Positions 3,126 through 64,000 of a stretch of DNA of 64,000 bases are shown here, in pieces. A program made the position numbers and the translations under genes. The notes under the pieces are model-generated. The model was not told the DNA's origin and did no database searches. It worked only from the letters and a program-made list of their open reading frames with translations. Each line of letters begins with the position of its first letter. Position 1 is the first letter of the stretch. The stretch lies in contig JACQSX010000050.1 in assembly GCA_016211105.1 (NCBI GenBank), positions 59,347 to 123,346 of the forward strand, given 5' to 3'. The stretch is from Acidobacteriota bacterium (GTDB lineage: Bacteria; Acidobacteriota; UBA6911; JACQSX01).

Positions 3126-5198
3126 ATGTATCGAGTAGGGGTTGATATCGGCGGGACGTTTACCGACTTGCTTATGCTGGGACAAGATGGGCGCACTGTT
3201 ATTGGCAAGACTCTAACCACTTCATCCGATCCAAGCCTGGCGGTAGAGACCGCGCTACGGCAAGCACTCGGCGAGGGAGTGACCAAGCCCTGTGAACCTG
3301 GAGAACTCATCCATGGAACGACGCTGGTGACCAATGTCATTATTGAGCGCAAGGGCGCGCTGACGGCATTACTCACGACGGCTGGCTTCCGTGATGTGCT
3401 GGAAATCGGTCGTGAAAAGCGCTATGAACTGTACGACCTGAATTTGGAACCTCCGCAGCCTCTTGTCCCGCGCTACCTTCGCTTCGACGTGCCGGAGCGC
3501 ATACTGGCAGATGGCTCCGTTCTGCAACCTCTGGACGAAGCCTATGTCCAACGTCTAGTAACCGAGCTGCGCGACAAGGGTATTAAGGCAATCGGCGTAT
3601 GTTATCTACACAGCTACCGTAACCCGGAGCACGAGCGGCGGACCGCTGAGATTATTTCCAAGGTAGCACCCGACATTCGAGTGTCTCTGAGCTCGGACGT
3701 GGTCTCTGAGATTCGAGAATTTCCGCGCACCAGCACAACCGTCGCGAATGTTTACGTACAGGAATTGGTGGCAAATTATTTGACCAAGCTTCAGCAACGC
3801 TTGGACAGCCTGGCCTTTGTCGGCTCCTTCTTTGTCATGCTCTCCAGTGGAGGTATCGCCACGGCAGAAACATCGGCGCGGTTCCCCGTTCGCTTGCTGG
3901 AGTCCGGCCCTGCAGCCGGAGCGCTGGCAGCTGCGCACGCGGGAGTTCGCTCCGGACACCCGAATCTGCTCTCGTTTGACATGGGAGGCACCACCGCCAA
4001 ACTGTGTGTCGTAGAAAAGGGTCAACCGTTGAAGACGCACGAATTCGAGGTGGACCGGGTTTATCGCTTCAAGCGAGGAAGTGGGCTGCCGATTAAGATT
4101 CCAGTCATCGATATGATTGAGATCGGTGCAGGCGGCGGTAGTATCGCTCATAGCGACAGCCTTGGCCTGCTGAAGGTTGGACCCAAAAGCGCGGGCGTTG
4201 AGCCCGGGCCAGCATGTTACGGGTACGGCGGCGAAGAGCCGACAGTCACCGACGCTGATCTGGTGCTTGGCTACCTGGATGCAAAGTTCTTTCTGGGGGG
4301 GAAGATGCGCCTGGATGTGGAAGCCGCGCATCGCGCCCTTGATCGCCTGGCTAAGCCCTTGGGTCTCACCACAGAGCAGGTTGCCTGGGGCATCCACCAA
4401 ATCGTCAATGAGAACATGGCAAACGCCGCTCGGGTACACCTTGGAGAACGCGGCAAAGACCCGCGCCACATGCCGCTGTTCGCTTTTGGCGGCGCCGGTC
4501 CGGTGCATGGCTACCGCGTAGCCGAAGTCCTGCATTTGCCGGCGCTCATATCACCCCTTGGCGCCGGCGTGGGTTCCACTTTTGGGCTTCTCGTCGCCCC
4601 ACTGGCTTTCGATTTTGTGCGCAGCGCCTACAGCAGGCTGGACAGTCTGGACTGGGGCTTCGCCAATGCGCTCCTGCAAGAAATGGCGAGGCAAGGTCGC
4701 ATGGTGTTGGAGAACTCCGGGCTTGCCGCATCTGAGATCTCATACCGGCGTAGCGCAGACATGCGCTATGCCGGTCAGGGCCACGAGGTATCGGTGCCAA
4801 TCCCGAACCGAATCCTGGACGAGCGTGACATCCCCCCGTTGACAGCGGCCTTCGAGCAGATTTACCGCGAACTGTACGCGCGGGCGGGCCCGGATGTGCC
4901 CCTGGAGGTGATCAACTGGCGGGTTGTCGCCAGCGGTCCACAACCGGAAATGCACTTCCGCCCGACACCGGCTCGTACTGGTGAAACGGCTAAAAAGGGC
5001 TCAAGATTGGTGTACTTCCCCGAATATGGAAGCTTTGTAGAAACACCCGTTTATGACCGTTATGTCCTCAGATCGGGAATGAGCCTCCGCGGACCCGCCA
5101 TCATCGAAGAGCGTGAATCCAGCCTCATCATTGGAGCCAGAGGCCAAGCCCGGGTAGACGAGTATTTGAACGTGATCGTGAAATTTGCTGATGCCTGA
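3126..5198 (+). CDS. hyuA: hydantoinase A / N-methylhydantoinase A (oxoprolinase family) subunit
   Basis: 690 aa; N-terminal MYRVGVDIGGTFTD sugar-kinase/HSP70-like fold signature typical of HyuA; overlaps next gene. Confidence 0.9.
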   Translation: MYRVGVDIGGTFTDLLMLGQDGRTVIGKTLTTSSDPSLAVETALRQALGEGVTKPCEPGELIHGTTLVTNVIIERKGALTALLTTAGFRDVLEIGREKRYELYDLNLEPPQPLVPRYLRFDVPERILADGSVLQPLDEAYVQRLVTELRDKGIKAIGVCYLHSYRNPEHERRTAEIISKVAPDIRVSLSSDVVSEIREFPRTSTTVANVYVQELVANYLTKLQQRLDSLAFVGSFFVMLSSGGIATAETSARFPVRLLESGPAAGALAAAHAGVRSGHPNLLSFDMGGTTAKLCVVEKGQPLKTHEFEVDRVYRFKRGSGLPIKIPVIDMIEIGAGGGSIAHSDSLGLLKVGPKSAGVEPGPACYGYGGEEPTVTDADLVLGYLDAKFFLGGKMRLDVEAAHRALDRLAKPLGLTTEQVAWGIHQIVNENMANAARVHLGERGKDPRHMPLFAFGGAGPVHGYRVAEVLHLPALISPLGAGVGSTFGLLVAPLAFDFVRSAYSRLDSLDWGFANALLQEMARQGRMVLENSGLAASEISYRRSADMRYAGQGHEVSVPIPNRILDERDIPPLTAAFEQIYRELYARAGPDVPLEVINWRVVASGPQPEMHFRPTPARTGETAKKGSRLVYFPEYGSFVETPVYDRYVLRSGMSLRGPAIIEERESSLIIGARGQARVDEYLNVIVKFADA

Positions 5199-7304: not shown

Positions 7305-7374
7305 TTCTGGTTTTCTACCTGGGAGCCTTAACTATCATACCCGTTACTCTAGTATTCGCTCGAGAGACTAAGTC

Positions 7375-7641
7375 CCTCGATTCATAAGTACGGTAACGTT
7401 TGCTGGTGGAGCTTGCGAGACGAGATCCAGGAGCGATGAGGAGGCGATGCAGCGGACATCGGCGACAACGTGCGACGCCGAGATCGCCCGCAACCCCCAC
7501 CAGCCCGGAGGGTTGCGGCGGGATGGCCCCGCTTTCTTTGTCGCTCCTCCTCGCCAATGAGCCCTGCATTGACTTGTCGTCGCTTCGCGAAATCAGGGCC
7601 ATCGCGCTCGCAACAAACGTTATCGTATTTATGAATCGAGG
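7375..7641. repeat. MITE-like repeat element, copy A (~28-bp terminal inverted repeats CCTCGATTCATAA[G/A]TACG[G/A]TAACGTTTGC)
   Basis: Left TIR 7375-7403 and right TIR 7614-7641 are reverse complements; internal sequence matches the reverse complement of a second copy at 63599-63749 but carries ~115 bp of extra internal sequence. Confidence 0.6.
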
Positions 7642-7695
7642 TACGAAAGGACAGGCACTGCAACAATCGTCGCCAAAACGAGATTGGAGGCACTT

Positions 7696-20791: not shown

Positions 20792-21196
20792 AATTGGATA
20801 CGCGCCTTATTGTACCCGCCTTTTTGCCTCCTCAAACAATGTGAGAAACCTTCCTTTGTGTTAGAGGACGTCACTAGGATTTCGGGCTTCACCACAGAGA
20901 GTTCGGGTCGGCCTCATTTCCGCGATCGTTCATTCACAGTCTGCAGCGCAAACATCGTGCCAGAACGCGATCGAAGATCGCGTATTCGCTGTCTCTCGCG
21001 AAAGTCCCTTACGCGCAAACCAATCGCTCGATTCAGCAAGGTTGAGACAGTAAAAATTACCGGAAGGACATGGAGCTCAGTTAACGATTTTGGGATGGGG
21101 CAGCCACCTTAACCTTCAATCAATAGAGGATATTCTTCTTTGGATAGACTCTTGCGTGCAGCCGTTCTTTCTAGGCAAACGGCCTACGGAGGAGCT

Positions 21197-27330: not shown

Positions 27331-27347
27331 AAACTGCATACAGCCTA

Positions 27348-29600
27348 ATGAAAAGGAATCTGCTAACGATTGTCACCTGGGTAGTAACGCTGTTTCTCAC
27401 GTTGAGTCAGCCTGCCACTCCTGCTCGGGGACCCACAGAGTCGTCTCTACCCGCAGAGACGCGCCCTGGGGCGACTTTCGAACAGTGGGAAGGAGTCTTG
27501 CCTGCCTCTTACCGCACGCCAGCGGTCGGAGAGGTTACTGTCCGTGCCTCGGGAAGAGGGTACCCCTGGATCAACCTGGCCGACGGTCGCGACCTTCCCA
27601 TCTTTTATCCGGAAAAGGACGCGGTAGGGGTGCTGAAAAACCACGCAATGCGACCTTTGTCGCTGGCTGCGGCCGACTTCGATGAGGATGGTGTGCCGGA
27701 CCTGGTGAGTGGTTACGAGGCAGCCGGAGCCGGTTTCCTGCTGGTGCAGCGAGGCAACATTGATTTCCTGCACCCGTACACAGCAGGCGCGCAGCAACGC
27801 AAGGCCTCGGGCGAGGTTAATTCTTTTCCTTTTGCACCGCAGGCGATTGTGGTTGAGTTGCCCGCTGCGCCAGATTTTCTGGGAAGCGGCGACTTTGACG
27901 CCGACGGCCACTGGGATCTTGTAGCGGCTGCGCGGGGAAGCAACCTAGTTCACTGGGCATCGGGCGACGGCCGAGGCGCATTTACAGCAGCAAGGGAAAT
28001 CGCCTTGCCTGGAACCGTCACAGCGCTGGCCACCGGTGATGTCAACAGGGCGGATGGCCTGGAAGACATTCTGGTGGGCGTCTCAGGCAAGAATGGACCA
28101 GAGCTCTTGGTGTTTGAGGGACCGGCGGGAGCCCTGGCGGAGGGTACTGCGGCCGGAGGAAGAGATAAGGGCGCTGAAGGCCTGCTGCATAGGCCGGAAA
28201 GTTTTCCGCTGGATGCCGAGGCAGTTTCCATTGTCACGGGACAGCTCAACCTAGATTATCCGACCGACGTTGCCGTTGCGGCCGGAACCGAGTTACTGAT
28301 CATTTATGGCCGCGACCACAGGCTGTCTTGGAATCAGGAGTCCAGACAGCAAGTAGGTCCGGCGACAACCGAGCGCCTCCAATTTTCAGTCGCGATCCGC
28401 TCTATCGCGGCGGGAGACTTTCGTGGAAATGGTAGCGCTGCTCTGGCCCTGCTATTCAATGATGGTCGCCTGGAGCTCTGGGACGCCGATATCGAGAGGG
28501 AGCGGCAGCAGTTGCAAAGTAATGGCGCCACAACAGCGGCTGAGAGCAGTGCCCTTTCTCACGCCCAGTCCGGCGATGTTCACCGTGCATGGAAGCGCTC
28601 CTGGAATCCGGGAGCGGTGCTCCAAGCTCCTCCCAGTTCCCAAGCTCTATCGGCTCTGCTGGTCAGGACGCGTGCCGCCAGCATTGCGAAAGATGCTCTG
28701 CTGGTGATCGATTCTGTCAGCCGGCAATTGCATCTTTGGGTTGAGAACGAAGTTTCCGACGGGCGATCCGACAACTTCACCAAGCTGGAAAGCGGCTCCT
28801 TGTTGATTTCTGAGACTCTTCAAATGCAGGAATCTCCGGTTTCCGTCTTACCCATGCGCCTGAACGGCGATGCCCTGACTGATCTGGCCATTTTGAAGAG
28901 CGGAGGCCATCCCATTGTGTGGGCCGAGACGGCTCCGGGAGCGATTATCACGGTCAACAGTAGCGGCGACACGTCCGCCCGAGACGCCGTGTTGACGCTG
29001 CGAGAGGCGATGTCGATTGCCAATGGAAGTTTGGCAGTGTCGAGCCTGACTTCTGCAGAAAGGGCTCAGGTTTCCGGAACACCGGCAAATCCAGGGCTGG
29101 ATGAAATCCGTTTTGCAGGAGTGACATCCATTACTGTTGGGGTAGGAGGATTTCCCAGCCCGGGTACATCCAATCCGATTACGATCGACGCAAGATCGGC
29201 GGGAAGAGTGGAGGTCAAACAGGCCGGCAACGCTGGTGTCCAGGTCAGCGTTTCAACCGGCAACAGCACAATTCGGAACCTCGCTATTGGCGGCATCCGA
29301 ATGGGAACGAGGGGGTCCAATGTAGTGGCTGGCAACTACCTCGGTTTTGATCTCAATCAGAACACTTTTGCATCGCCGGGAAGTTCTTATGGCATTTCGG
29401 CTGACAATGGGTCGACTGACAACAGGATCGGTGGAACCACGGCAGCAGATCGCAATGTAATTGCCATGTCGGGCTTCGCGCGTGATGACCTGTCGATTTC
29501 CGGCGGCTCGCACCGCAATCAAGTCCTGGGCAACTACGCCGGCACCGATGTCGCACAGGCACGCAGGCCAAGGGCAATCGACGCGGAATCACGATTGTAG
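27348..29600 (+). CDS. giant secreted FG-GAP/VCBS-repeat, CSLREA and right-handed beta-helix protein, fragment 1 of 3 (frameshifted gene)
   Basis: Signal peptide MKRNLLTIVTWVVTLFLTLSQPA; FG-GAP-like DxDGxxD repeats; CSLREA-like TLREAMSIANGS; beta-helix repeats; reading frame breaks near 29557. Confidence 0.75.
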   Translation: MKRNLLTIVTWVVTLFLTLSQPATPARGPTESSLPAETRPGATFEQWEGVLPASYRTPAVGEVTVRASGRGYPWINLADGRDLPIFYPEKDAVGVLKNHAMRPLSLAAADFDEDGVPDLVSGYEAAGAGFLLVQRGNIDFLHPYTAGAQQRKASGEVNSFPFAPQAIVVELPAAPDFLGSGDFDADGHWDLVAAARGSNLVHWASGDGRGAFTAAREIALPGTVTALATGDVNRADGLEDILVGVSGKNGPELLVFEGPAGALAEGTAAGGRDKGAEGLLHRPESFPLDAEAVSIVTGQLNLDYPTDVAVAAGTELLIIYGRDHRLSWNQESRQQVGPATTERLQFSVAIRSIAAGDFRGNGSAALALLFNDGRLELWDADIERERQQLQSNGATTAAESSALSHAQSGDVHRAWKRSWNPGAVLQAPPSSQALSALLVRTRAASIAKDALLVIDSVSRQLHLWVENEVSDGRSDNFTKLESGSLLISETLQMQESPVSVLPMRLNGDALTDLAILKSGGHPIVWAETAPGAIITVNSSGDTSARDAVLTLREAMSIANGSLAVSSLTSAERAQVSGTPANPGLDEIRFAGVTSITVGVGGFPSPGTSNPITIDARSAGRVEVKQAGNAGVQVSVSTGNSTIRNLAIGGIRMGTRGSNVVAGNYLGFDLNQNTFASPGSSYGISADNGSTDNRIGGTTAADRNVIAMSGFARDDLSISGGSHRNQVLGNYAGTDVAQARRPRAIDAESRL

Positions 29601-30736: not shown

Positions 30737-33081
30737 CACCTAATGATCCCGGTGATGCCGACGCGGGTGCCAATCAGCTACAGAACTTTCCGGTCCTGAC
30801 GCCGGCGCCGGGCGGCGCGGGCCTGACCGTAGCGCTCAACAGCAGAAGCACCGATAGCCCCTTTCGCATCGAGCTTTTCTCCAACGCGGCCTGCGATCCC
30901 TCTGGGCACGGGGAAGGCGAACGACTATTGCAGGTGATAGAAAATGTGAGCCTGGATTCGAGCGGCAACTTTGCGCGCACCATTGCATTGCCTTCCGGGC
31001 GGTTTTTCACGGCAACCGCTACCGATCGTAATGGCAATACCTCGGAGTTTTCCGCCTGCGCGGGGGCTGCGCCCCCTTTTGAAGCATTCATCGTCAATTC
31101 AACCTCCGATCGGCCAGACAGGACGACAGGAGATGGCCGCTGCGATACAGGGGAAACCATCGGGGGGCGGGCCGAGTGCACGCTGCGGGCGGCGATCCAG
31201 GAGGCCAACAGCAAGAGCGGGACAGACGTCATTCGTTTCAACATCGCCGGGATGGTTCCTCACCGCATTCAGCCAGGATCTCCGTTGCCTATAGTGACAG
31301 ACCCGGTGACGATTGATGGGTCCTCGCAGCCTGGGTTTGATACTGCGCCTGTGGTGGAGCTAAACGGTCTGGAAGCAGGAAGCCAGGCAAGCGGCCTGGA
31401 AGTGGCTGCCGGGAACTCAACCATCAAGGGGTTGATCATCAGCCAGTTCAAAGTCCATGGGATCTTAATCAGGGGCAGCGGTGCAAACCGCATTGTCAAT
31501 AATCTGATCGGCACTGACAGCAGTGTCTCGCGCGTAATCGGAAACGTGCACTCGGGAATCGCGGTATCGGAATCTGCCAACAACATTATCGGGGGCGAAC
31601 CGGTTGACGGTAACGTTATTGCCGGAAATGGAAATGATGCGATCACCGAAGGCTTCGCCGCCGGTATTTTCATTGCTGGAACAAACGCCAAGAAGAACGT
31701 GATTGCGGGAAACGCGATATTGGCTAATGTCAGAGGGATCTTTATCATCGACGCATCGGGCACGACCATCGGCGGAGAAACGATTCAGCGGGCCAATGCG
31801 ATACGGTTTAATGTCCGTGAAGGCATCGTTATCTCCGGGGCGGCCGTTTCCAATTCCATTCTGGTCAACTCCATCTCCGATAATGGCGCCCTCGGAATTG
31901 ATCTTGCAGGGGACGGCCCTGAGGGGATCGATCTGCGAGACGCAGATACCGGGCCGAACGGTTTGCAGAACGCGGCGGAGATCTATTCAGCGACGGCTAC
32001 GGCCAGCGGCGATACCAGCCGGGTCCGGATGCGGCTTAGAAGCGCTAAGAACGAAACCTTTACCGTTCGATTCTTCACCGGCACTACGCCAGATCCTTCG
32101 GGTTACGGGGAAGGCGATACTTTTGTTCTTACTAGAAACGTCACCACGAGCGACTCAGGCTATGGCCCCACATCATTCGTATCTCCGGTGAAGCTGGGAA
32201 AATTCCTCAGTTGCACAGTCACAGACGCACAGGGCAATACGTCCGAGTTCTCGGCGGCGGCGCCGATCAAGCTCGATAGCGACGGCGATAGCGTGAGCGA
32301 CGAGGAGGAGAATCTTAATGGCGGGGACGCGAACGGGGACTTTACACCCGACAGGCTGCAGCCAAATGTGCAACCCCTCACAACTTCGTCCGGGCGACGT
32401 GTCGCCATCGAAGTTTCGCAAGAGAGTGTGTTAACCAATGCAAGCACGTATCTCGCCGCGTTGGCAGGCGCAACTTTATTTGAAGGCCAGTTTGGAAGGC
32501 CGCTTGGCTTTTACGAGCTGTTTGCCCGATTTACCGTGGGCGCAAAGTCTCCTTTCCAGGTTATGGGTGGTTCAACGACTGTAACGCTCTTTGTCCCACC
32601 CGAACTTAAGTTCACGTCCTACCTTAATTACGGACCGACACCGGACAATCCAACGCCTCACTTTTACCAATTCATGTTTGACGGAAAGACGGGCGCGGAG
32701 TTCAAAACGGGCCGGATTCTGCTTCACCTGGTCGATGGGCAGCGCGGCGATCATGACCTCGCCGCCAATGGAGAGATCACCACGCTGGGCGGGCCGGTCA
32801 TCGGTATGCCGAACAGATTTTTCATTCCTCTTTACCGGTCTGACCCCTCAACCTTTACCGGCTACGCAGTTTCAAATTTTTCTGCGCGTGACGCCAACAT
32901 TCAGTTCACCGCATTGGATTTCGACGGGATTGCGTTGAGCACGCTGAATAACCCAAGCTCATTTCTCCTCAAGCCTGGGAACCAATTGGCGCTGCTGGGG
33001 AGGCAAGTATTTTCCGACGATTATTTAGATCCGCAGAGAGAGACGACTCTGTCCGTCCCGGAGCAGGAAGTAGCAGGCTGA
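30721..33081 (+). CDS. beta-helix repeat protein C-terminal part, fragment 3 of 3 (same gene, shifted frame)
   Basis: Frame open upstream and continues beta-helix repeats across a GGGGG run at 30568-30572; C-terminal domain with DGQRGDHDLAANGEITTLGGP. Confidence 0.7.
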   Translation: MGNGVTPNDPGDADAGANQLQNFPVLTPAPGGAGLTVALNSRSTDSPFRIELFSNAACDPSGHGEGERLLQVIENVSLDSSGNFARTIALPSGRFFTATATDRNGNTSEFSACAGAAPPFEAFIVNSTSDRPDRTTGDGRCDTGETIGGRAECTLRAAIQEANSKSGTDVIRFNIAGMVPHRIQPGSPLPIVTDPVTIDGSSQPGFDTAPVVELNGLEAGSQASGLEVAAGNSTIKGLIISQFKVHGILIRGSGANRIVNNLIGTDSSVSRVIGNVHSGIAVSESANNIIGGEPVDGNVIAGNGNDAITEGFAAGIFIAGTNAKKNVIAGNAILANVRGIFIIDASGTTIGGETIQRANAIRFNVREGIVISGAAVSNSILVNSISDNGALGIDLAGDGPEGIDLRDADTGPNGLQNAAEIYSATATASGDTSRVRMRLRSAKNETFTVRFFTGTTPDPSGYGEGDTFVLTRNVTTSDSGYGPTSFVSPVKLGKFLSCTVTDAQGNTSEFSAAAPIKLDSDGDSVSDEEENLNGGDANGDFTPDRLQPNVQPLTTSSGRRVAIEVSQESVLTNASTYLAALAGATLFEGQFGRPLGFYELFARFTVGAKSPFQVMGGSTTVTLFVPPELKFTSYLNYGPTPDNPTPHFYQFMFDGKTGAEFKTGRILLHLVDGQRGDHDLAANGEITTLGGPVIGMPNRFFIPLYRSDPSTFTGYAVSNFSARDANIQFTALDFDGIALSTLNNPSSFLLKPGNQLALLGRQVFSDDYLDPQRETTLSVPEQEVAG

Positions 33082-33752
33082 CTTAACATGAGAAGCAGCG
33101 CTGCCGCCCAGGCGACAATCGTTAGCGGATTCCTTCTCATTAGGACCCTTATTCTAGCTTTAAGACTCTCACCACTCCAAGATCCGGCATTAAAGGAAAG
33201 CACGCAAGGGAAAAACAGGGTAGAGTCTTCTATTCTTACCGATAGGGGAACAACCGGTGGAGGGCTGGAGATTTACCTCATTCGGGTTTTCAACCTGCTT
33301 TTGTACAACACGTCGACTGCTTACCGAACCGAGCCCCTATTCTAACTTTGCAGCCTGATTCGGTCCAGTGCGCGAAGTGCCGAATCAAAAATCTACTCGA
33401 AGGATTCGTTGACTGATTTAGGTTGCTTGAAATTGACCGACTGCCTACTTCTGAGGCAAACAAGAATCAACTGCAAGGGGGGGGACCAAAGCCGCCGCCG
33501 CTCAAAAGTCAAAGGAGCGCGTCCACTTCAGACTAGCGAACGGCCACGCAGACCGGAATCGTAACCGACGGAACCGCGACGATCAGAGAGCGCCTGGAAG
33601 AACGGACTCGCTTCGGGGAAGCCGCCGCCAGAAGAGCTGCTGGCTCTTAAATGAACAACATTGGTATCGAGGAAGGGACCTGCAGGTGAAGTCAATAACT
33701 TACGTCCTTCGCGGTCAAAGAAGTTTCTGAAAGCGGCCGGAACGTTCCGCCA

Positions 33753-53618: not shown

Positions 53619-55277
53619 ATGACGGTTGGAAAAACCGCAGCTCTCTCTTTTTTGTGTCTGTTCGCGACCTCGCCAACGCCGATTTGCGGTCAGGAGGTAA
53701 CGCAGTATCTGCCGCAGATAGCCGACGGGGGAGGAGCGATCACAACGTTTTTTACAGTGAACCAGGCGGAGACAGCAGTCACTGTGACCATTGACGCGTT
53801 TTCTCCCGACGCGTCGCCTATGTCGGTGTTGAGTACAGGCAGTTCGGTGACATTTACACTGCCAATCGGAGGTTCCGCCTTTGTTAGAACATTAGGGTCG
53901 TTGGGCGGCTTTTCTCGCGCCGGTTTTGCCCGAGTTCGCTCCAGCGGGATGACGGGTGTGGCCGCAATCTTCCAGTTTTTTGATGCTGGTGGAAATCTCC
54001 TGTCAGAAGCGGGCGTGTTGCCGTCGCCACTAGTAAAAGGGTTTTCCATAACGGCGGCCTTCAGTCCTGCCCAAGGAGTGAACACCGGCTTGGCGGTAGC
54101 GAGTCCTGTGAGCGACTCGAATTTGACGCTCTCGTTGATGAACCCGGACGGCAGCGTGCGCAGGACGGCCAGTTTGAGTGTGCCGGCCGGAGGACAGAGG
54201 GCGCGGTTTCTAAGCGAGACGACTCCGCCGCTGTTTACCGGATTGGATGTGATCTATGGCGCAGTCAAAATCACCAGCGATGTCCCGGTTGCTCCGGTGA
54301 CACTGCGGACGGATGGAACGCAGTTGACCACCGTGCCGGTGATTACTCCCACGCTTGAGGCACAGGGACCGTCCGGGCCTGCGGGTCCGCAAGGTCCAAC
54401 AGGCCCCACTGGACCTCAGGGGCCTGCAGGTCCGCCGGGTGCCCCCGGGCCCGCAGGTCCAGCAGGCGTCAGCGGCCCACAGGGGCCAGCAGGCCCAACC
54501 GGCGCCACCGGGTCCGCAGGTCCAACCGGCGCGACCGGGCCTGCAGGAACCTTTTCACCCGGTGCCAGTATCGAGGGTTCGACCGCCTCGGCGCTGATTA
54601 CCTTCACCAACAGTGGAACCGGCTCAAGTGTTTATGGTTTGCACAGCAGCTCCAGCGGAACTGAGCCTGGCCTGCGAGGGGAAACTTACTCAACCCAGGC
54701 AAGTGCGGCTGGGATGATTGGAAGGGTAAGAGCTGCCTCGCCGGGTGGCTTCTCTGCTGGAGTCCGAGGAATTAATGAGGGGACCGGCAGCCAGGGTATT
54801 GGAGTCTGGGGATCGCAAAACGGTAGCGGCTGGGGACTCTACGGTACCTCAGTTTCTGGTAGGGGAGTCTTTGGGACGTCTGATGCCGGAGTCGGCGTGT
54901 ATGGTACGTCTGAGTCCTCCTTCGGAGTTGTTGGGAAAACGTCCACCGGGTCCGGTGTGCTGGCAGAAAGTAGCAGCCCAGACGGGAGCGCCCTTGAAAT
55001 CAGAAACGGCGCCATCAAAGTGTCAGGCAATCCCAAACCGGCCTTTGTTCACACCAGCAAAGGGAAGAGTTTGAGAACGTACATTGACCATCCGCTGACC
55101 AATGGAAAACCGAATGCCATTCTGATCGTCACGCCTGTTGGCGGCAACTACACAGCACGAGCTGTTGGGGTGGAATACGATAGTGACTCTAATTACCAGC
55201 AATGGACAATCTATAACCTCGATTTTACAGACCAGGCGGTTGGCCAGCGATTCAACGTCCTTGTTATTCAACAGTGA
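53619..55277 (+). CDS. secreted collagen-like (G-X-Y) repeat protein with N-terminal copy of the shared surface domain
   Basis: ~20 Gly-X-Y triplets ([25 protein letters not shown]...); signal peptide; AAGGAGG RBS. Confidence 0.8.
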
Positions 55278-55278
55278 C

Positions 55279-58200
55279 TTATTGCAGCCGCGTTACCGGC
55301 AGTGTTGTGAACTGGCCGGCTTGGCTGCCCAATTGAATCGCGGTCGCCGCGATGCCGCCCCCTTCGGCGGTCACCGTCAGCGTCCCTTCAAAATTGTTGG
55401 TGTCCGCACTGGGGAAAAGCTCGTCAATAAAACGGGCCACGTGACCACCTGCTTTCAGCGCTATCGTCGTTGTGCCTCCCGCGACCGGTTGTCCGCTGGC
55501 ATTACGCAATACCAGGTGCAACGTTACTGCTCTGCCCGTCGCGTTGACCGCAACGCCCGTGTTGATCCCGGTTTCCCGGCTGCGACGAACTGGCGAGATG
55601 AATCCGTTGAAGCTACCGCCTCCGCCGACGCCGGCAATCCCGATGCCCGGCAACGTGAAGCGTAGCACTCCCCCCACGACTCCTTCCGTGACATTTGCTC
55701 GAGCCGAGCCAGTGGTGACTGCCCCCAGACCGTCGGTCGTGAAAACGGCCCCGCCCTGAGGAGCGATGTCAAACGGAATATCGCTGGCTGAGGCCCCGCC
55801 GTTGACAGAGATCGGTAGACGGTTACCGTCATCGTTGAGAAAAGCCAGCTCCCCTCGGGCCCGCTCCGTGGCCGAGGGATTAGTCAAAAACAGAGAGGAC
55901 GAGAGATTGCCGCCATTGCCGAGGTGAGCAAAATAGACCGTCCCGCCGGCGGGCTCTGGAGAAATCGGGGTGACTGGGAGCGTAGTAAATTCACCAGGCC
56001 TTCCACCCACTTGAATCGCCGTTGCCGCGATTGGGCTGCCCGTGACCGAGAGCGTTCCTTGGAAATCTCCCAGGCCCGGAAATAGTTCCTGAATAAAGCG
56101 GGCCACATGGCCATCGACTGCGATGGGTAGTTGTCCTTGGCGAAAAGCGGCGCCATTGAGACCCTTGAGTGTCAGCCTCAGATTGGTTGCGGGCCCAAAA
56201 TTGAAAACCGCGATTCCCGTGCTGACTCCCTGGGCACTGTTTCTAGTAATTGGCGTGATAAAGGAATCTACAAGCTGACTCTCTCCTACTCCGGCAATTC
56301 CCAATCCGGGAGCTGAAAAACGAACCACTCCGCCCAGCGGCACATTGGAGAGCACCTGGGCTGAGCCTGTCACGAGAGTCCCTATTCCATCGCTGTTGAA
56401 CGTGACGCTGCCCAGCGGCGGGATAGTAAAGTCGACGCCGTTGTCGACAGGCCCCCCATTCAACGCCAGCGGCAACGGTTTACCATCATCATCGGAGAAA
56501 TCGATGCCGCCTTCGGCCGTTGTGGTTGCAGAGGAATTCGTCAGATCTACAGAAGAGACAAACTGCGACCCGTTGCCCAACTGGGCAAACAGGAACAAGT
56601 GTAGGATCTTCTCCACATTAATGATGCTGTAGGCGCCCCCCGTGACCGGATCGGTAACCAACGCGGAAGCATTTCGTTGCTCTCCAATCTCACCAGCCAC
56701 ATCTGTTCCCGTGTTGCCCTTTTCTCCCGAACCTTTTGAAAGAACACTGGCGCTAAAACCGCCGTTTAACACAACCCTGTCTGTCCCACCTCCGCCATCG
56801 ATGTTCTCCCTCTCCCCGGGCGGCACGTCTCCAGCCCGGAGGATAATTGTGTCATCACCGTTGCCGCCGAGCATGTTGTCTCTGCCGGTTCCACCAAGCA
56901 AGGTGTCGTGGCCCCCGCGGCCGTCTAAAGTGTCATTTGCAGGCCGACCATCCAGAAAGTCATTCCCTTCGCCTCCGACCAGATTGTCAATCCCGGGGCC
57001 GCCAACCAAAACCTGGTTCGGGACACCCGGGAGCGTGGTACTGGTGGTCGTCTGCGTGCGGGTTGTCGTGGTTACGGTGACGAATGTGCTGGTAGCCGTC
57101 CGGGTTGTGGACGTAGCGGTGCCAGTGGGAGAAGTGCCGGTTGTTGAGGTGGCAGTGCCCGTCACGGACGTTGCAGTTCCTGTTGTTGAAGGACTCGTCG
57201 TGGAAGTAGCGCTGCCGGTCGTGGTAGTGGCAGTAGATGACGTTCCGCTTCCTGTGGTTGAAGTACCCGTCGAAGAGGTGGGTGGGATCGTTGTAGTTGT
57301 GGTTATCGTTGTCGTGCCCGTGGTCGACGTCCCCGTAGCGGTAGTCGAGGAGCTTGTCAGGGTAGCAGTCGCCGTCGTGGTGGTCACCGTCCCCGTCGTC
57401 GTGCCAGTTGTCGTCGTCGTCGTGGACACGCTGAGTTGTTGATTTCCGAAATCCACACCCAAAGCAATCGCATCGCTCGCGGTTGCGACGTCCGGGTTTG
57501 GCGTGGTCTGTTTCCAGCCGGGTTGGAGAACCTCTCGGACCTTGAATGTCCCCGCACTTAAATTGACGAAGTTGTAATTTCCGCCTGAGTCTGTAAGCTG
57601 CGAGGCCTCTCCACTGTCCAAGATTCCGTTGCCGTTATCATCCAGGAAGATTCTCCAGCCTCCGATTCCCGGCTCGCCTGCATCCCTGACACCATCGCCG
57701 TCGAGATCTTCGAATTTCGTCCCCCTGATCGAAGCAAGCTTAAAGTTGCCGAAGTTAACGCCTGATCGATCGATACCACTGCTAGATGCGAAGTCGCTCG
57801 GGTCTGAAGTCGTCTGTTTCCAGCCGGCTTGCAGCACCTCTCGCACCCTAAGTGTTCCTGGGCCCAGATTACCGAAAGTGTAGTTTCCGCTTGCGTCCGT
57901 AAGCTGCGAAGCCTCTCCGCTGTCCAAGGTTCCATTGAGATTATCGTCCAGAAAGATCCTCCAGCCCGAAAGCCCCGGCTCGCCTGTGTCTTTGACCCCA
58001 TCGCCGTCCAGATCTTCGAATTTTGTTCCACTGATTGTGATTAGCTTGAAGTTGCCGAAATCCGCTCCGGAAACATTTTGGCCGCTCACCGTCGTGATAT
58101 TGCGATCCCCGGCGGTCTGTTTCCAGCCAGGCGTCGGAACCAGCCACTCTCGGAGCCTGCAAGTTCCGGGACCCACAGGGGTGGGTGCACCTCCAAGACT

Positions 58201-58836
58201 GTAACTCCCATTCGGAAGGGTTGCAACCACTGGCTCTCCCACATCGCGTGTTCCATTATTGTCGTCGTCGCAAAAAATCGTGAAACCCTGCAGGCCCGGC
58301 TCGCCGGAATCCTTCACGCCGTCGCCTTCGGTGTCATCAAACTTCGTTCCGCTGATTGTCACATACTTAAAGTTGCCAAAATCCACACCTGACCGGGAGC
58401 CTCCGGTCGTATTGACCGTTCGTTCGGGGGTAGTCTGCGTCCAGCCGGACTGAACGACTTCGCGGACGTTGTAAATGGCCTCAGTCACCGAAAGCGAATA
58501 ATTTCCGCTGGCATCGCTGGTTGTCGAAGTCTCTCCCGAGTCGAGCCTCCCGTCGTTGTCGAGATCGACGTAGACTGTCCAGCCTTGCAGTCCCGACTCC
58601 CCAGGCTCTTTGACGCCGTCGCCATCTTTGTCCTCAAATACCTGTCCGCTGATTGTCCTGGGGGCGGCCCCGAATTTATCGTCAGAGGTCCGTTTCTCAA
58701 ATCCCTGCGCGGCGACCCCCTCTACAGTTCCCGCGACTGCAGAACCCAGTATGACCATGAGTGCCGCCAATACAAACGAACGCGGGCAGAAACATTCAAG
58801 CTGTGTGCGTGAGGTCGGTACTTGCTCTTTTTTCAT
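55279..58836 (-). CDS. large surface adhesin-like protein: SdrD-B/Cna-B-like repeats, Thr-rich linker, RTX-type Ca-binding repeats, two copies of shared C-terminal domain
   Basis: Repeated ISGTKFEDLDGDGV...GW units; ~130-aa Thr/Ser-rich tract; GGxGxDxLxGG nonapeptides; C-terminus ...AIQLGSQAGQFTTLPVTRLQ; start set at MKKEQ (58836). Confidence 0.8.
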   Translation of the reverse strand: MKKEQVPTSRTQLECFCPRSFVLAALMVILGSAVAGTVEGVAAQGFEKRTSDDKFGAAPRTISGQVFEDKDGDGVKEPGESGLQGWTVYVDLDNDGRLDSGETSTTSDASGNYSLSVTEAIYNVREVVQSGWTQTTPERTVNTTGGSRSGVDFGNFKYVTISGTKFDDTEGDGVKDSGEPGLQGFTIFCDDDNNGTRDVGEPVVATLPNGSYSLGGAPTPVGPGTCRLREWLVPTPGWKQTAGDRNITTVSGQNVSGADFGNFKLITISGTKFEDLDGDGVKDTGEPGLSGWRIFLDDNLNGTLDSGEASQLTDASGNYTFGNLGPGTLRVREVLQAGWKQTTSDPSDFASSSGIDRSGVNFGNFKLASIRGTKFEDLDGDGVRDAGEPGIGGWRIFLDDNGNGILDSGEASQLTDSGGNYNFVNLSAGTFKVREVLQPGWKQTTPNPDVATASDAIALGVDFGNQQLSVSTTTTTTGTTTGTVTTTTATATLTSSSTTATGTSTTGTTTITTTTTIPPTSSTGTSTTGSGTSSTATTTTGSATSTTSPSTTGTATSVTGTATSTTGTSPTGTATSTTRTATSTFVTVTTTTRTQTTTSTTLPGVPNQVLVGGPGIDNLVGGEGNDFLDGRPANDTLDGRGGHDTLLGGTGRDNMLGGNGDDTIILRAGDVPPGERENIDGGGGTDRVVLNGGFSASVLSKGSGEKGNTGTDVAGEIGEQRNASALVTDPVTGGAYSIINVEKILHLFLFAQLGNGSQFVSSVDLTNSSATTTAEGGIDFSDDDGKPLPLALNGGPVDNGVDFTIPPLGSVTFNSDGIGTLVTGSAQVLSNVPLGGVVRFSAPGLGIAGVGESQLVDSFITPITRNSAQGVSTGIAVFNFGPATNLRLTLKGLNGAAFRQGQLPIAVDGHVARFIQELFPGLGDFQGTLSVTGSPIAATAIQVGGRPGEFTTLPVTPISPEPAGGTVYFAHLGNGGNLSSSLFLTNPSATERARGELAFLNDDGNRLPISVNGGASASDIPFDIAPQGGAVFTTDGLGAVTTGSARANVTEGVVGGVLRFTLPGIGIAGVGGGGSFNGFISPVRRSRETGINTGVAVNATGRAVTLHLVLRNASGQPVAGGTTTIALKAGGHVARFIDELFPSADTNNFEGTLTVTAEGGGIAATAIQLGSQAGQFTTLPVTRLQ

Positions 58837-58919
58837 CTTTAATTTTCCCGATCCCGGAGGCGGCACTCTCCGGCAAATCGAGGTGTCATTTGGCGCGACG
58901 CCATCGCCTGCTCTATCCG

Positions 58920-58994
58920 TGAGGGTGAGACGGATCTCATTTAGTGAGGGTGAGACGGATCTCATTTAGTGAGGGTGAGACGGATTTCATTTAC
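58920..58994. repeat. three tandem direct copies of a 25-bp repeat (TGAGGGTGAGACGGATCTCATTTAG) upstream of the adhesin gene
   Basis: Copies at 58920-58944, 58945-58969 (identical) and 58970-58994 (2 mismatches), 84-158 bp upstream of start codon 58836 on the minus strand. Confidence 0.7.
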
Positions 58995-60051: not shown

Positions 60052-60181
60052 GACGCGGATTATTCATTAGCAAAACATTTCAGCGCTCCACTCGGTGCTA
60101 CGGGTTATCTGGAGACTGGCAAGGACAAAAAATATCTTGACCAAATCGCATTCGAGAATATACTTACTGGTCGGTATAATA

Positions 60182-60811
60182 ATGAGGCCGTCGCAACCTC
60201 GTCAGACTCGCTCGCCCCGGGAAGTTCACCGTTCCAGCCGGGAGGCGATTCATATCGCAGCCACCGCTCTTTTCGCGGAGCGGGGTTATGCAGCCACATC
60301 GATAAGAGAAATCTGCCACCGGGCAGGTATCACCAAGCCCGCGCTTTACTACCATTTCGGCAACAAGGAGCACCTCTATCAAGGACTGATCCTGGATGCT
60401 TTCAACGAGTACCGTAAGGAACTGTTGTTGGCTTCCCGGCAAAGCAGGACGACTGCCGTGAAACTCGTGGATGTGTTGGAAGCGATGTTTGCTTTTGTGC
60501 GAAAGAATCCCGAGCTTTCCCGCCTTGCGTTTCGAATGATCCTTGCGCCCGAAAAAGGTTCGCCGGTAATCGAGTACGATGAATTATGCAAGTTCGACGC
60601 TCGCTTTATTGAAGGAATCGTGGCGGAGGGCATCCGAAAAGGGGAGATGAGAGGGAGTCCTCGGGAAATCGCCGACGCCCTGACCGGGATTGTCACAGTG
60701 CACATTATCGATTTTCTGGTCGCCGGCAAGCCGGTTTTGCGCCGCTCGCTTGCCGAGGGGGCCGTGGACCTACTGCTGCACGGTTGTATGCCCGCCTCTA
60801 CCGATCGGTAG
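60182..60811 (+). CDS. TetR/AcrR family transcriptional regulator
   Basis: N-terminal HTH ATSIREICHRAGITKPALYYHFGNKEHLY; directly upstream of efflux genes; TATAAT 1 nt before ATG. Confidence 0.85.
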   Translation: MRPSQPRQTRSPREVHRSSREAIHIAATALFAERGYAATSIREICHRAGITKPALYYHFGNKEHLYQGLILDAFNEYRKELLLASRQSRTTAVKLVDVLEAMFAFVRKNPELSRLAFRMILAPEKGSPVIEYDELCKFDARFIEGIVAEGIRKGEMRGSPREIADALTGIVTVHIIDFLVAGKPVLRRSLAEGAVDLLLHGCMPASTDR

Positions 60812-60816
60812 CGCCT

Positions 60817-62199
60817 ATGGGAACGAGGAGGGGAAAATTCGCCGTAAGTGTACTGAGCGTCCTATGGTTGCATAACCTTTTTCTGGCGGCCAGCCCGCAA
60901 GACAAGCCAGCGCTGACAGTCAACGAAGCAGTGGCGCTGGCCGTGACGCGCAACCAGCAGGCGCTGATCGCGCGCGCGCAGGTGGATCTGATGAGGGGCA
61001 AAGTACGCGAGGTGCGAGCGGAGGCTTTGCCTTTCATCAGCTTCACCAGCAGTTCGCTCCGACTGCGCGATCCCTCTTTTTTGAATGCGTCCAGCTTTGA
61101 CACGATTCCCATCGAGTTTCGGGAAGGCTTGAGGCCGCGTGGGGCCAATCTTTTCGATTACAGCTTCAAGGTGTCACAGCCGCTTTACAGTTCGGGAAAG
61201 GTGGCCAGCGGCTTAAAGTTAGCAAGCCTGGAAATGGAGGGCACCGGCATCGATCAGGCACGCGTCGAACAGGAAATTCGGCTGCGCGCCGTCCGCGCCT
61301 TCTACGATTTGGTGCTGGCCGAAAAGCTGCTCGAAGTGAGCCGGGAGATGGTCCAGCAGCGCCAGCGCCACCTGGAACTGGCGCGCGTTCGATACGAAGC
61401 GGGCGTGGCTACCGAGGTCGATGTGCTGCGCTCGCAGGTGAGCCTTGCCAACGCGCAGCCAGAGTTGCTTCGTGCGGAAAACGCGGTCCACCACGCGCGC
61501 TCCGTGCTTAACAACCTGCTGGTCCGTCCGGTGGACTTTCCCACCGAGACACTGGGGCAACTGGACTTTGTACCGTGGACGAGGACCAAGCGTGAAGAAA
61601 TCGTTCGGGACGCCCTAGCGCAGCGGCCTGAATTGCGACGACTTCACATCAATGAACTTGAATCGGATATGCAGACAAAATTGGCGCAGGCAGAGAGCAG
61701 ACTGCGTGTCGATTTCGTCGGAGAATACGGCCTCTCGGCGCGAGACCCCTCCAATCTGGTGGATGCCCATTTCACACGCTGGGCTTTCTCGCTCAAACTG
61801 TCGCTGCCGATCTTTGACGGGGGCAAACGCGACGGTCTTCTGCAGCAGGCGCTGGCGCAGCGCAAGGTCGCAGAACTTACTCTCAGCGCGCAGGAGGAAG
61901 CCATTCGCCTAGAGGCGCAGAGCGCACTGGACGAGCTGGCACGCGCGGAGAAAACAATTGAGGCGGCACGGCTCAACGTGACACAGGCGGAACGCGTGCT
62001 CGAGATGATGCAGAATAACTACAAGTATGGAGCCGCTACGACGCTTGATGTCCTAGACTCCCAAACTGCGGTTACCACGGCACGTTGGACGCTGTACCAA
62101 GGGCTTCACGATCACACCGTGGCGCGAGCGCAGGTTCGATACATCATGGGGCAGGATCCGCTGGAACAGAACGGCGCAAATGCAAACTCCTCAAAGTAA
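60817..62199 (+). CDS. outer membrane efflux protein (TolC family)
   Basis: Two TolC-like repeats with coiled-coil segments, signal peptide; ATG 60817 chosen over track start. Confidence 0.85.
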   Translation: MGTRRGKFAVSVLSVLWLHNLFLAASPQDKPALTVNEAVALAVTRNQQALIARAQVDLMRGKVREVRAEALPFISFTSSSLRLRDPSFLNASSFDTIPIEFREGLRPRGANLFDYSFKVSQPLYSSGKVASGLKLASLEMEGTGIDQARVEQEIRLRAVRAFYDLVLAEKLLEVSREMVQQRQRHLELARVRYEAGVATEVDVLRSQVSLANAQPELLRAENAVHHARSVLNNLLVRPVDFPTETLGQLDFVPWTRTKREEIVRDALAQRPELRRLHINELESDMQTKLAQAESRLRVDFVGEYGLSARDPSNLVDAHFTRWAFSLKLSLPIFDGGKRDGLLQQALAQRKVAELTLSAQEEAIRLEAQSALDELARAEKTIEAARLNVTQAERVLEMMQNNYKYGAATTLDVLDSQTAVTTARWTLYQGLHDHTVARAQVRYIMGQDPLEQNGANANSSK

Positions 62200-63418
62200 A
62201 CTTTTCGATTCAACTGAAGCAAAGATTCAATCGCCCGCTGGCGGCTGGGTGGCGTTGGCCAACCTGAGGGAGCTCTTATTTCTTTTGTCACTGGCTCTGA
62301 TGTCAGGTTGTTCCACAGACAATGTCCGGACAGGCCCGGCCGCTCCCCCGTTGACCGTGAAGGCGATCCAGCTTGCGCCTCACCCGCTGCAGGAAACGAT
62401 CAACGTCACCGGATCGCTTATTTCTTCCGTGGCTGTGGATGTGAATACGGAATTCGCCGGCCACGTGGTGAAGATGAACAAGCAAGAGGGGGATTCCGTC
62501 AGACAGGGAGAGCTTTTGGCCGAACTGGATGACGCCAATGCCCAACTCTCGATGGCACAGGCAAACGCGAGCCTGGAGGTATCGCAGGCAGCGCTGAATC
62601 GAGCCAAGGTAACCGAGGAACACGCCCAGGCAGAACAGGAGCGGGCACAAAACTTGCTGCGCTCCGGCGGCATTACGGAAAAGGATTTTCTGGCGGCAGA
62701 GGTGGCGACTCGAGACGCGCAGGCCCAAGTGAAGCTCGCGGAAGCTCAAATCGAACAGTCACGACAAACTTTGGCGATCGCCCAGAAGCGCTCGAATGAC
62801 TGTCGCATCCTTTCGCCGATTCGCGGGACCGTGGAGCGCAAGGGTCTCAACCCGGGCAGCTACGTGGATGCTAATACGGTGCTGTACCGGCTGGTAGACA
62901 ACCACCGTTTGGAGCTGGAAACTTTCGTGGCGGCCCCCGATATTTCACGACTCGCCAAAGGACAGACCATCCGATTCAGCGTCGCATCGTTTGCGGAGGG
63001 AGCGTTCACCGCCCGCATCGTGACCATCAGCTCTGGAGTTCAGCTTCAAAATCGCTCTCTCGTCGTTCGAGCAGCCTTTTCCAATCCCACAGGCAGACTC
63101 AAGGCCGGAATGTTCTTCAAAGGTCAGATTGTGGTTGGAACGAAAGCGAATGCCTTGCTCGTTCCTGCCAGCGCTGTGTGGCGTCGCGCGGGGCAGCCAG
63201 CGTTTGTGTACGTGGTCGAGCAAGGCCAGGCGCGTCGGCGCCAGGTAAAGATCGGCATTGAACAGCCAGAGAACATTGAGGTTGTCGGCGGACTTAAAGC
63301 CAGCGAGTGGGTGATTGCCGAGCAATATCTTGAACTCGCCGACGGAATCCCGGTTGCGATGACAAAAGCAGGCAATTTCAAAGAAAGCGTGGCGGGTGAC
63401 ATGGAATCGGGCGGCTAG
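62180..63418 (+). CDS. efflux RND transporter periplasmic adaptor subunit (MFP/HlyD family)
   Basis: Lipobox-like LALMSGCS, coiled-coil and beta-barrel regions; overlaps TolC gene end; exact start uncertain. Confidence 0.85.
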   Translation: MQTPQSKLFDSTEAKIQSPAGGWVALANLRELLFLLSLALMSGCSTDNVRTGPAAPPLTVKAIQLAPHPLQETINVTGSLISSVAVDVNTEFAGHVVKMNKQEGDSVRQGELLAELDDANAQLSMAQANASLEVSQAALNRAKVTEEHAQAEQERAQNLLRSGGITEKDFLAAEVATRDAQAQVKLAEAQIEQSRQTLAIAQKRSNDCRILSPIRGTVERKGLNPGSYVDANTVLYRLVDNHRLELETFVAAPDISRLAKGQTIRFSVASFAEGAFTARIVTISSGVQLQNRSLVVRAAFSNPTGRLKAGMFFKGQIVVGTKANALLVPASAVWRRAGQPAFVYVVEQGQARRRQVKIGIEQPENIEVVGGLKASEWVIAEQYLELADGIPVAMTKAGNFKESVAGDMESGG

Positions 63419-63496
63419 AAATCATGACTACGCAGTTTGCTGGCCGCCACTCAAATGGCTCCTTTGCGGCGCTATGCGCGTCAGGAAGCGGACCCT

Positions 63497-63578
63497 CAAA
63501 TGCGGAATTCGGAATGCGGATGGCGAATTTCGGTGGACTTTTTACATTCCGCATTCCGAAATCCGAAATCCGCATTGC
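63497..63578. other. imperfect inverted repeat / predicted hairpin between MFP and RND genes
   Basis: GGAATGCGGA (63511-63520) pairs with TCCGCATTCC (63549-63558), extended by imperfect AAATGCGGAATTCGG / CCGAAATCCGCATTG arms; no T-tract. Confidence 0.4.
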
Positions 63579-63598
63579 AGTTGTCCGCTTGCTTCGTA

Positions 63599-63749
63599 CC
63601 TCGATTCATAAATACGATAACGTTTGCTGCGAGCGCGATAGCGCCGATTTCGCGAAGCGACGACGATGTCCCCGCATCGACTCCTCCTCGCTCCTTGATC
63701 TCGCCTCGCAAGCCCCATTAGCAAACGTTACCGTATTTATGAATCGAGG
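63599..63749. repeat. MITE-like repeat element, copy B (same family as 7375-7641, opposite orientation, shorter)
   Basis: Terminal inverted repeats CCTCGATTCATAAATACGATAACGTTTGC ... GCAAACGTTACCGTATTTATGAATCGAGG; lies between MFP and RND pump genes. Confidence 0.6.
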
Positions 63750-63855
63750 TACTTACGCGCGCGGCTCAGAATTTTTCACACCTTCTGACGGTGGCAGCTT
63801 CGCCGCGCGAGGTCTCTGCGACGAGCGTTCCTTGAAAAGCCGCCAGTAAAAATTT

Positions 63856-64000
63856 ATGTTTCTCTCCAATCTTTCGATTCGCCAGCCCGTCTTTGCCACG
63901 ATGATGGTCGTTGCCCTGGTGGTAATCGGCGTCTTTTCCTATAACGAGCTAAAGATCGACCTTTTTCCCAATGTCGACCTGCCGGTGGTCAGTATTACCA
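63856..64000 (+). CDS. RND efflux pump inner-membrane subunit (AcrB/CzcA family), N-terminal 48 aa; continues past window
   Basis: MFLSNLSIRQPVFATMMVVALVVIGVFSYNELKIDLFPNVDLPVVSITT is the N-terminus typical of RND pumps; not in ORF track because truncated. Confidence 0.8.
   Translation, partial: MFLSNLSIRQPVFATMMVVALVVIGVFSYNELKIDLFPNVDLPVVSIT

Follow-up and report, generated by a model that had tools for sequence, protein, structure and literature searches.

The window, by which we mean the whole 64-kb stretch of DNA analysed, harbors at its 3′ end the front part of an efflux operon on the plus strand. A TetR-family regulator gene (60095-60811; Pfam TetR_N, E = 7.8e-18) stands first in the operon and is followed by the genes of a TolC-like outer-membrane efflux protein, OEP (60817-62199; Pfam OEP, E = 1.4e-52), and of a HlyD-type periplasmic adaptor, MFP (62180-63418; Pfam HlyD_D23 and HlyD_3), and by the start of an AcrB-type RND transporter gene (63856-64000; Pfam ACR_tran, E = 7.9e-10 over 48 residues), which continues past the window end. 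The open reading frame of the OEP extends over 60784-62199, and the OEP start at 60817 follows the gene called on Logan contig L001, which is identical. The MFP is identical to the NCBI protein P0001, named efflux RND adaptor, from an Acidobacteria MAG. The 48 N-terminal residues of the RND protein share 73-94% identity with homologues, and 89-94% inside the window's clade, so the RND gene looks functional as far as its N-terminus indicates; a search with these residues for the remainder of the gene returned one unrelated fragment only.

The TetR and OEP genes are separated by 5 nt and the OEP and MFP genes overlap by 20 nt, which, with all of these genes identified by Pfam, agrees with the tight TetR/TolC/MFP linkage described in a first-pass annotation made from the sequence alone. 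The spacing of 437 nt that it reported from the MFP stop (63418) to the RND start (63856) was also recovered. This intergenic gap (63419-63855, plus strand), which measures 6 nt in most relatives, is made up of four parts, namely a unique segment at 63419-63482, a hairpin at 63483-63593, a MITE-like element at 63596-63752 and a second unique segment at 63753-63855. An imperfect 13-nt direct repeat, with 11 of 13 positions identical, was observed near both ends of the gap (GCCGCCACTCAAA at 63443-63455 and GCCGCCAGTAAAA at 63839-63851), and may be left over from the original insertion or be due to chance.

The hairpin is a palindromic element of 111 nt (63483-63593, without assigned strand), in which arrays of 7-nt units, inverted to each other, make up the arms. 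The compound hairpin with perfect 10-nt arms noticed at first pass is present, with GGAATGCGGA at 63511-63520 and TCCGCATTCC at 63548-63557, and forms the core of this larger structure, the outer stem of which is AGGAAGCGGAC/GTCCGCTTGCT. The RNA minimum free energy of the whole element is -52.2 kcal/mol, with z = -5.6 against dinucleotide shuffles. The left arm carries CGGAATK units at 63499-63520 and on to 63533, in the forms CGGAATT, CGGAATG and CGGATGG, and the right arm (63545-63576) carries their complement; TRF reports period 7 for both, counting 3.1 copies for 63499-63520 and 4.6 for 63545-63576. The arms enclose a segment of at most 15-24 nt. The (CGGAATK)n pattern yielded seven overlapping matches against 0.23 expected, and no other period-7 array was found by TRF in the 64 kb; a single period-14 array occupies 20799-20826. 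Ranking of 120-nt windows by raw folding energy was uninformative for the hairpin, because GC-rich coding repeats fold more strongly, and an inverted-repeat census was used instead; it revealed six local inverted repeats of this size in the whole window, three of them within the MFP-RND gap. Searched against Rfam 15 with E values of up to 1 admitted, the gap gave nothing but chance hairpin look-alikes, and no family match was obtained in the whole window or in eight related loci. Arm mismatches comprise 15 G:T and 17 A:C, so no wobble bias of a sense RNA is apparent, as expected for a palindrome at the DNA level, and selection on the arms as sense-strand RNA was rejected on these counts.

The MITE-like element begins 2 nt beyond the hairpin. 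It is the short form (157 nt, 63596-63752, plus strand) of an element found twice in the window, and is hereafter called copy B, with terminal inverted repeats (TIRs) at 63596-63629 and 63719-63752. The long form, copy A (273 nt, 7372-7644, minus strand), runs in the opposite direction to copy B, and 40 nt separate its end from an acyl-CoA dehydrogenase gene downstream. The two full copies are thus 56 kb apart, in opposite orientation and in unrelated contexts. Both carry TIRs of 34 nt, GTACCTCGATTCATAAATACGATAACGTTTGCTG and its complement, a pattern with four matches in the window against 0.00 expected, and they are 89-94% identical over their common parts, with 115 extra central bases in copy A. 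Copy B is an imperfect palindrome from end to end (minimum free energy -76.6, z = -8.7). The MITE-like copy in the gap, proposed at first pass, was therefore upheld by its 34-nt TIRs, by the inverted second copy at 7372-7644 and by the palindrome over its whole length.

By structure, copy B fits a MITE, having TIRs within the range of ~15-40 nt, a size under ~300-500 bp without coding capacity, and dispersed copies, these in small numbers. No cognate autonomous IS or transposase was found in the 64-kb window or in a scan of a genome collection, and the 46 ORFs of the window contain no transposase, recombinase, RAYT or Y1 transposase domain. The genome-collection scan detected only two partial copies, a solo end and a fragment (L003 and L004), both in one groundwater Acidobacteria MAG, and no TIR pair around any gene; the TIR was also absent from viral contigs and plasmid collections. 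The partial copy in L003 resembles the long form, which suggests that copy B is probably a deletion derivative of it. The ORFs that cross copies A and B run in different frames and share no similarity, which argues against conserved coding. If the element begins at CCTCG, copy B is flanked by TA on both sides and copy A by TC and TA; the bases just outside the element, TTCG and CTTA, are common to both copies, so that its true ends are uncertain and a TA target duplication is no more than possible. The only terminator-like stem with a T-run in copy A is located at 7517-7533, in the 115-nt central segment missing from copy B, and lies on the strand opposite to copy B's orientation.

The first-pass annotation had treated the repeat element and the hairpin as one insertion. 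Both are present, but they are two separate elements of different age, and copy A has no heptamer hairpin beside it. In the MAG with the MITE fragments, a tandem array of (GGAAGGC) x 14.6, one base off the window's CGGAATG unit, was observed at L003 6347-6448, and ends ~20 nt upstream of the start of an opposite-strand gene.

Other repeats were also observed in the window. A 25-nt unit (GTGAGGGTGAGACGGATCTCATTTA) occurs three times in tandem, nearly without differences, at 58919-58993, in intergenic DNA upstream of the efflux operon. Inverted repeats of ~115 nt (27344-27457 and 33030-33144), 82-86% complementary and 5.6 kb apart, bracket genes with FG-GAP and weak NosD-like domains, the latter below the Pfam cut-off, and both arms overlap coding sequence. 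A 306-nt tandem repeat of ~78% identity with a partial third copy (57493-58395) lies inside a 1228-codon minus-strand ORF, and collagen-like repeats of 27/63 nt (54382-54547) lie inside the ORF 53619-55277.

The anatomy of the gap was in part reproduced by an independent assembly, as the Logan contig L001 has the hairpin and the 27 leading bases of the MITE without any difference. Of the two contigs with the identical MFP, L001 breaks off within the MITE TIR at window position 63622, and L002 at the base of the hairpin (63486). Such ends are expected where DNA is repeated, and they deprive both assemblies of the RND gene. Since short-read assemblies break at both elements, efflux operons in such MAGs will often look truncated.

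A total of 43 TetR-OEP-MFP-RND loci (L005-L046 and L063-L065, the window counted) were compared. The TetR gene is located upstream in 31 of 40 homologous loci. The distance from the MFP stop to the RND ATG is exactly 6 nt in 30 of the 43, and the distances from the TetR stop to the OEP stop (1365-1410 nt) and from the OEP stop to the MFP stop (1123-1219 nt) are constant in all loci. Insertions were observed solely at the MFP-RND junction, in 13 of the 43 loci, and the TetR-OEP and OEP-MFP junctions never expand. Within the window's clade, the gaps measure 437 nt in the window, 232 nt in L005 and L006, 231 nt in L007, 227 nt in L008, 214 nt in L064, 221 nt in L065 and 162 nt in L010 and L011; elsewhere they range from 21 nt to 236 nt (L016 180, L027 82, L037 150, L044 236 and L045 21 nt). 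The neighbor-joining tree of the MFP groups the window with L005-L011, all with large gaps, and places L016, L027, L037 and L044/L045 each among loci with 6 nt. From this nesting, the junction is deduced to have been expanded at least five separate times, and, judged from the homologous loci, 6 nt is the ancestral state. Even the closest homologues share no more than 63-65% of their MFP residues with the window, and no allele predating the insertion was recovered. Since the 6-nt junction prevails and the other junctions never expand, the 437-nt gap marks a true insertion site, which is consistent with the proposal of an insertion into an otherwise tight operon. The comparison with orthologous loci that had been asked for revealed the 6-nt junction, and not the spacing of the window, in most of them.

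Hairpins are widespread at this junction in the relatives of the window. L005, L007, L008, L064 and L065 carry a large hairpin that begins 1-5 nt after the MFP stop, with minimum free energies of -87 to -103, and the z-scores, available for L005, L007 and L008 only, range from -6.8 to -11; mononucleotide shuffles and a first-order Markov model served as the null for the gap z-scores in the relatives and for the bridging frames. The arms are again 7-nt arrays, of GGTGATA/GGGAATA in L005 and L007 and of GGTGTCG/GGTGCCA in L008, L064 and L065, and a weaker version of the hairpin is present in L010. Heptamer-armed hairpins at the MFP-RND junction thus occur throughout the clade (L005-L011, L064 and L065) with heptamers that differ, and the hairpin class is probably ancestral there and older than this genome, with the MITE as a lineage-specific addition. 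The window hairpin starts 64 nt after the MFP stop, against 1-5 nt in the relatives, and has no detectable sequence similarity to theirs, so that we infer a common origin from the tree and the shared design only. The arrays of the relatives differ by whole heptamer units, which fits slippage. Insertions with little or no stable hairpin were also found, in L010, L016, L027 and L044 (z from -1.2 to +1.6).

Further short repeats were detected in these gaps. L016 and L044 contain TTCTGAC arrays just before the RND start. The motif CTTCTGAC is ~50-fold enriched in the gaps, always on the sense strand, and 4 of the 12 occurrences of CTTCTGAC/TTCTGAC in 330 kb fall within the 2.1 kb of gap sequence. 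Single or arrayed, these heptamers stand on the sense strand shortly upstream of the RND start in unrelated loci with gaps, at 63782 in the window, at 4222 in L016 and at 4281 and 4288 in L044. Between the MFP and RND genes of L037, a near-perfect and almost loopless palindrome of ~104 nt, built from 10-nt units (GGACATACAC), was observed at 2820-2924, with a minimum free energy of -103.7 and z ~ -18; so long a perfect palindrome is expected to be unstable in DNA.

The orientation of these elements bears on whether the arms could act as recombination sites of an inverton-like switch, flipping the enclosed segment and turning RND on or off. The ~165-nt element at L005 6212-6381 is reverse-complemented at L007 6132-6297 between flanking genes that are 90-91% identical, and the interior is 83% identical when reversed and 48% when read forward (local scores 172 and 81), as a switch would lead one to expect. 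However, ten contigs from ten samples with identical MFP all show the orientation and sequence of L005, on which active phase variation of this element type was rejected. The flipped interiors of L005 and L007 contain no promoter, the arms of the window hairpin enclose too little DNA for one, and neither the window nor the 21 kb around L005 contains a recombinase gene; in addition, recombination between arms of 40 nt does not require a dedicated enzyme. We read the inversion between L005 and L007 as an occasional recombination between the 40-nt arms and not as a programmed switch, the latter being extremely improbable here.

Transcription signals in the gap were also analysed, as the first-pass annotation had suggested that the insertion might supply an internal promoter. 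RND would then be transcribed from within the MITE or the hairpin, apart from the TetR-controlled promoter. Outward promoters in the ends of IS or MITEs are a known phenomenon, and one would fit into the gap. However, a scan for the E. coli consensus, which Acidobacterial promoters may not fit, detected no sigma-70-like promoter inside the hairpin or the MITE. The sole sigma-70-like match in the region (TTGAAA-17-TATGTT, 63832-63860) overlaps the RND ATG and would start inside the gene, so it could not drive RND. No promoter was detected in copy A or in the gaps of L005, L007 and L008, and copies A and B face their downstream genes with opposite ends. These results speak against the suggestion, and we consider such a promoter very improbable. 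Terminator-like sites, consisting of a stem-loop and a U-tract, were likewise absent from both strands of 63300-64000, and the gaps of L005, L007 and L008 contain no U-tract. Attenuation or uncoupling of RND, the other effect suggested at first pass, can reasonably be expected from the lost 6-nt coupling together with two stable stem-loops, and the output of RND is probably lower or decoupled.

The whole gap is bridged by a stop-free frame of 141 codons (63424-63849, plus strand), which opens with an ATG 5 nt behind the MFP stop and closes 6 nt short of the RND ATG. These spacings match the true gene junctions of the operon family, and the frame, which was found post hoc, has a counterpart in 0.05% of mononucleotide shuffles and in 0.13% of sequences from a first-order Markov model; an analogous bridging frame of 45 codons is present in L037. 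If translated, it might act as a relay by which ribosomes that reach the MFP stop travel on to the RND start, unfold the two hairpins and preserve both the coupling and the protection from Rho. Against this, the frame has no coding signature: the GC content by codon position is flat (0.54/0.54/0.55, compared with ~0.6/0.43/0.65 in real genes), no Pfam match was obtained, no called gene is on record, nine other loci with gaps have no bridging frame, and the frame that crosses MITE copy A is another one. We regard translation as a relay as decidedly improbable and a real small protein as much less likely still; a real gene encoding 141 aa in the gap was rejected on the lack of a Pfam match, GC periodicity and a called gene and on the differing frame in copy A. 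The frame may be chance or a ribosome relay across the spacer.

Taken together, the observations are best explained by two unrelated, non-coding palindromic repeats that would have piled up at the one insertion-tolerant junction of the operon, the first by slippage and the second as a MITE, with loss of coupling; we assign to this reading a probability of about 0.6. The data show the anatomy and repeat status of the gap, the 6-nt junction as the ancestral one, the presence of hairpins across the clade and the restriction of insertions to one junction, whereas the hairpin's mode of origin and every effect on expression are inferences. The hairpin would be a DNA-level pair of inverted heptamer arrays, probably enlarged through slippage in steps of 7 nt, with arms that are presumably kept self-complementary by template switching or arm-to-arm recombination. 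Later, a non-autonomous MITE-like element of 157 nt, internally deleted, would have landed 2 nt beyond it. As selfish or slippage-born DNA repeats, the two elements would break translational coupling, with loss of the termination-reinitiation coupling of MFP and RND translation across 6 nt, and the polycistronic mRNA would acquire, immediately 3′ of the MFP cistron, two stem-loops of great stability. These stem-loops would be expected to shield TetR-OEP-MFP from 3′-5′ exonucleases, to slow read-through, or both, as in malE-malF of E. coli. The output of RND would then fall below that of the adaptor and be less tied to it, with RND still made from read-through transcripts.

Two points count against a model of pure junk. 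The bridging stop-free frame is improbable by chance, and insertions bearing repeats have independent origins in at least four further lineages, never at the equally short TetR-OEP junction; this repeated use of the MFP-RND junction hints at selection rather than mere tolerance. On a selective account, the hairpin, perhaps with the stem-loop of the MITE, has been favored repeatedly as an adaptive intercistronic regulator that uncouples the genes and sets the adaptor-to-pump ratio above 1 through protection of mRNA 3′ ends, processing or partial termination. Tripartite pumps contain more adaptor than RND subunits, as in the AcrAB-TolC stoichiometry, and an adaptor output above that of RND would match it. 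Such regulation would also be in line with the insertions only at MFP-RND in at least five separate lineages, with the clade-wide persistence of hairpins despite turnover of their arm sequences, and with L005-L008, where the hairpin follows the stop by 1-5 nt and RND has acquired a ribosome-binding-like motif of its own, AGGAAAAGG; the malE-malF intergenic structure offers a precedent (PMC5927463). However, G:U does not exceed A:C among the arm mismatches, no U-tract is present, the insertions of L010, L016, L027 and L044 have little or no stable hairpin, most relatives manage with a 6-nt gap, and the flip of the element between L005 and L007 had no obvious cost, so that this account appears unlikely, if by no means negligible. 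Quite unlikely in our estimate is that inverted heptamer-array hairpins are a self-renewing element class of Acidobacteria, recruited repeatedly and independently at MFP-RND as a structured spacer that takes the place of the 6-nt translational coupling and sets the adaptor-to-pump ratio, with growth and shrinkage by 7 nt, arm-to-arm flipping and, in the window, a relay frame kept open.

With the accumulation of two unrelated repeats as the preferred reading, translation of the RND pump in this genome is probably no longer in step with that of the adaptor and the outer-membrane protein, which bears on efflux capacity judged from gene content alone. The locus also provides a natural experiment, in which a 6-nt junction, fixed in most lineages of the operon family, was invaded several times independently by short-tandem-repeat palindromes, and here by a MITE as well, and on which junk and a tuner of stoichiometry can be tested against each other.

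Several known systems resemble parts of this insertion. Bacterial MITEs that are co-transcribed within operons include the Correia/NEMIS elements of Neisseria, ERIC and RUP (PMC3733652), and a MITE inside an operon is ordinary. Copies A and B share with them a short length (273 and 157 nt), 34-nt TIRs, the lack of conserved coding capacity, intergenic positions in both orientations, a hairpin fold over the whole length and variants with internal deletions. They differ from them in having no clear target-site duplication (TA is possible, with 4-5 further flanking bases shared), in having no cognate transposase or full-length IS found, and in their very low copy number so far, of two in 64 kb and two fragments in one other MAG.

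The hairpin was compared with the palindromic REP, BIME and REPIN elements (PMC3116915; PMC3733652), one of which, the intergenic REP of malE-malF, stabilises the upstream mRNA; protective intergenic structures are an established means of setting operon stoichiometry (PMC5927463). Like REP and REPIN, it is an extragenic palindrome 3′ of a cistron in an operon and is predicted to be stable in ssDNA or mRNA, and like REPIN, which consists of two inverted units and a spacer, it has a paired design that occurs in either orientation at one site in the relatives. However, the arms are tandem 7-nt arrays in place of the fixed 20-40-nt unit of REP, and the hairpin is single-copy in 64 kb, with a sequence that differs completely between related genomes, and not a member of a dispersed, high-copy family with a conserved unit. 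The REP tag GTAG is absent at the hairpin, CGTC abuts its 5′ end (63479-63482), which may be chance, and no RAYT or TIRYT gene lies near it, unlike in REPIN. The hairpins also recall invertons in that inverted repeats flank a short segment found in both orientations across two related genomes (L005 and L007). Unlike invertons, they lack a recombinase and carry no promoter in the segment, the ten samples all show one orientation, and the segment in the window is only ~15-24 nt long; with inversion seen only between two lineages, they do not belong to the invertons, nor does 63300-64000 contain an intrinsic terminator.

Heptamer tandem arrays are the known class into which the window hairpin does fall, as it is an intergenic repeat built from 7-nt units in tandem. 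Heptameric repeats are over-abundant in bacteria (PMC4692102), and intergenic heptamer tandem repeats of unknown function, the TAACTGA arrays, have been described from Beggiatoaceae, Cyanobacteria and Bacteroidetes (PMC4679880). The window likewise has 3-5 copies of a 7-nt unit between genes; TAACTGA arrays are often close to a start codon, and assemblies often break there, as they do here. The units differ from TAACTGA, being CGGAATK in the window and GGTGATA, GGTGTCG and TTCTGAC in the relatives, and the arrays are inverted pairs that form a hairpin, in contrast to the Beggiatoa survey with 169 direct sets and one inverted (PMC4679880). Our literature searches returned no description of inverted heptamer arrays in Acidobacteria, and the present loci extend intergenic heptamer arrays to this group, in an inverted and hairpin-forming form.
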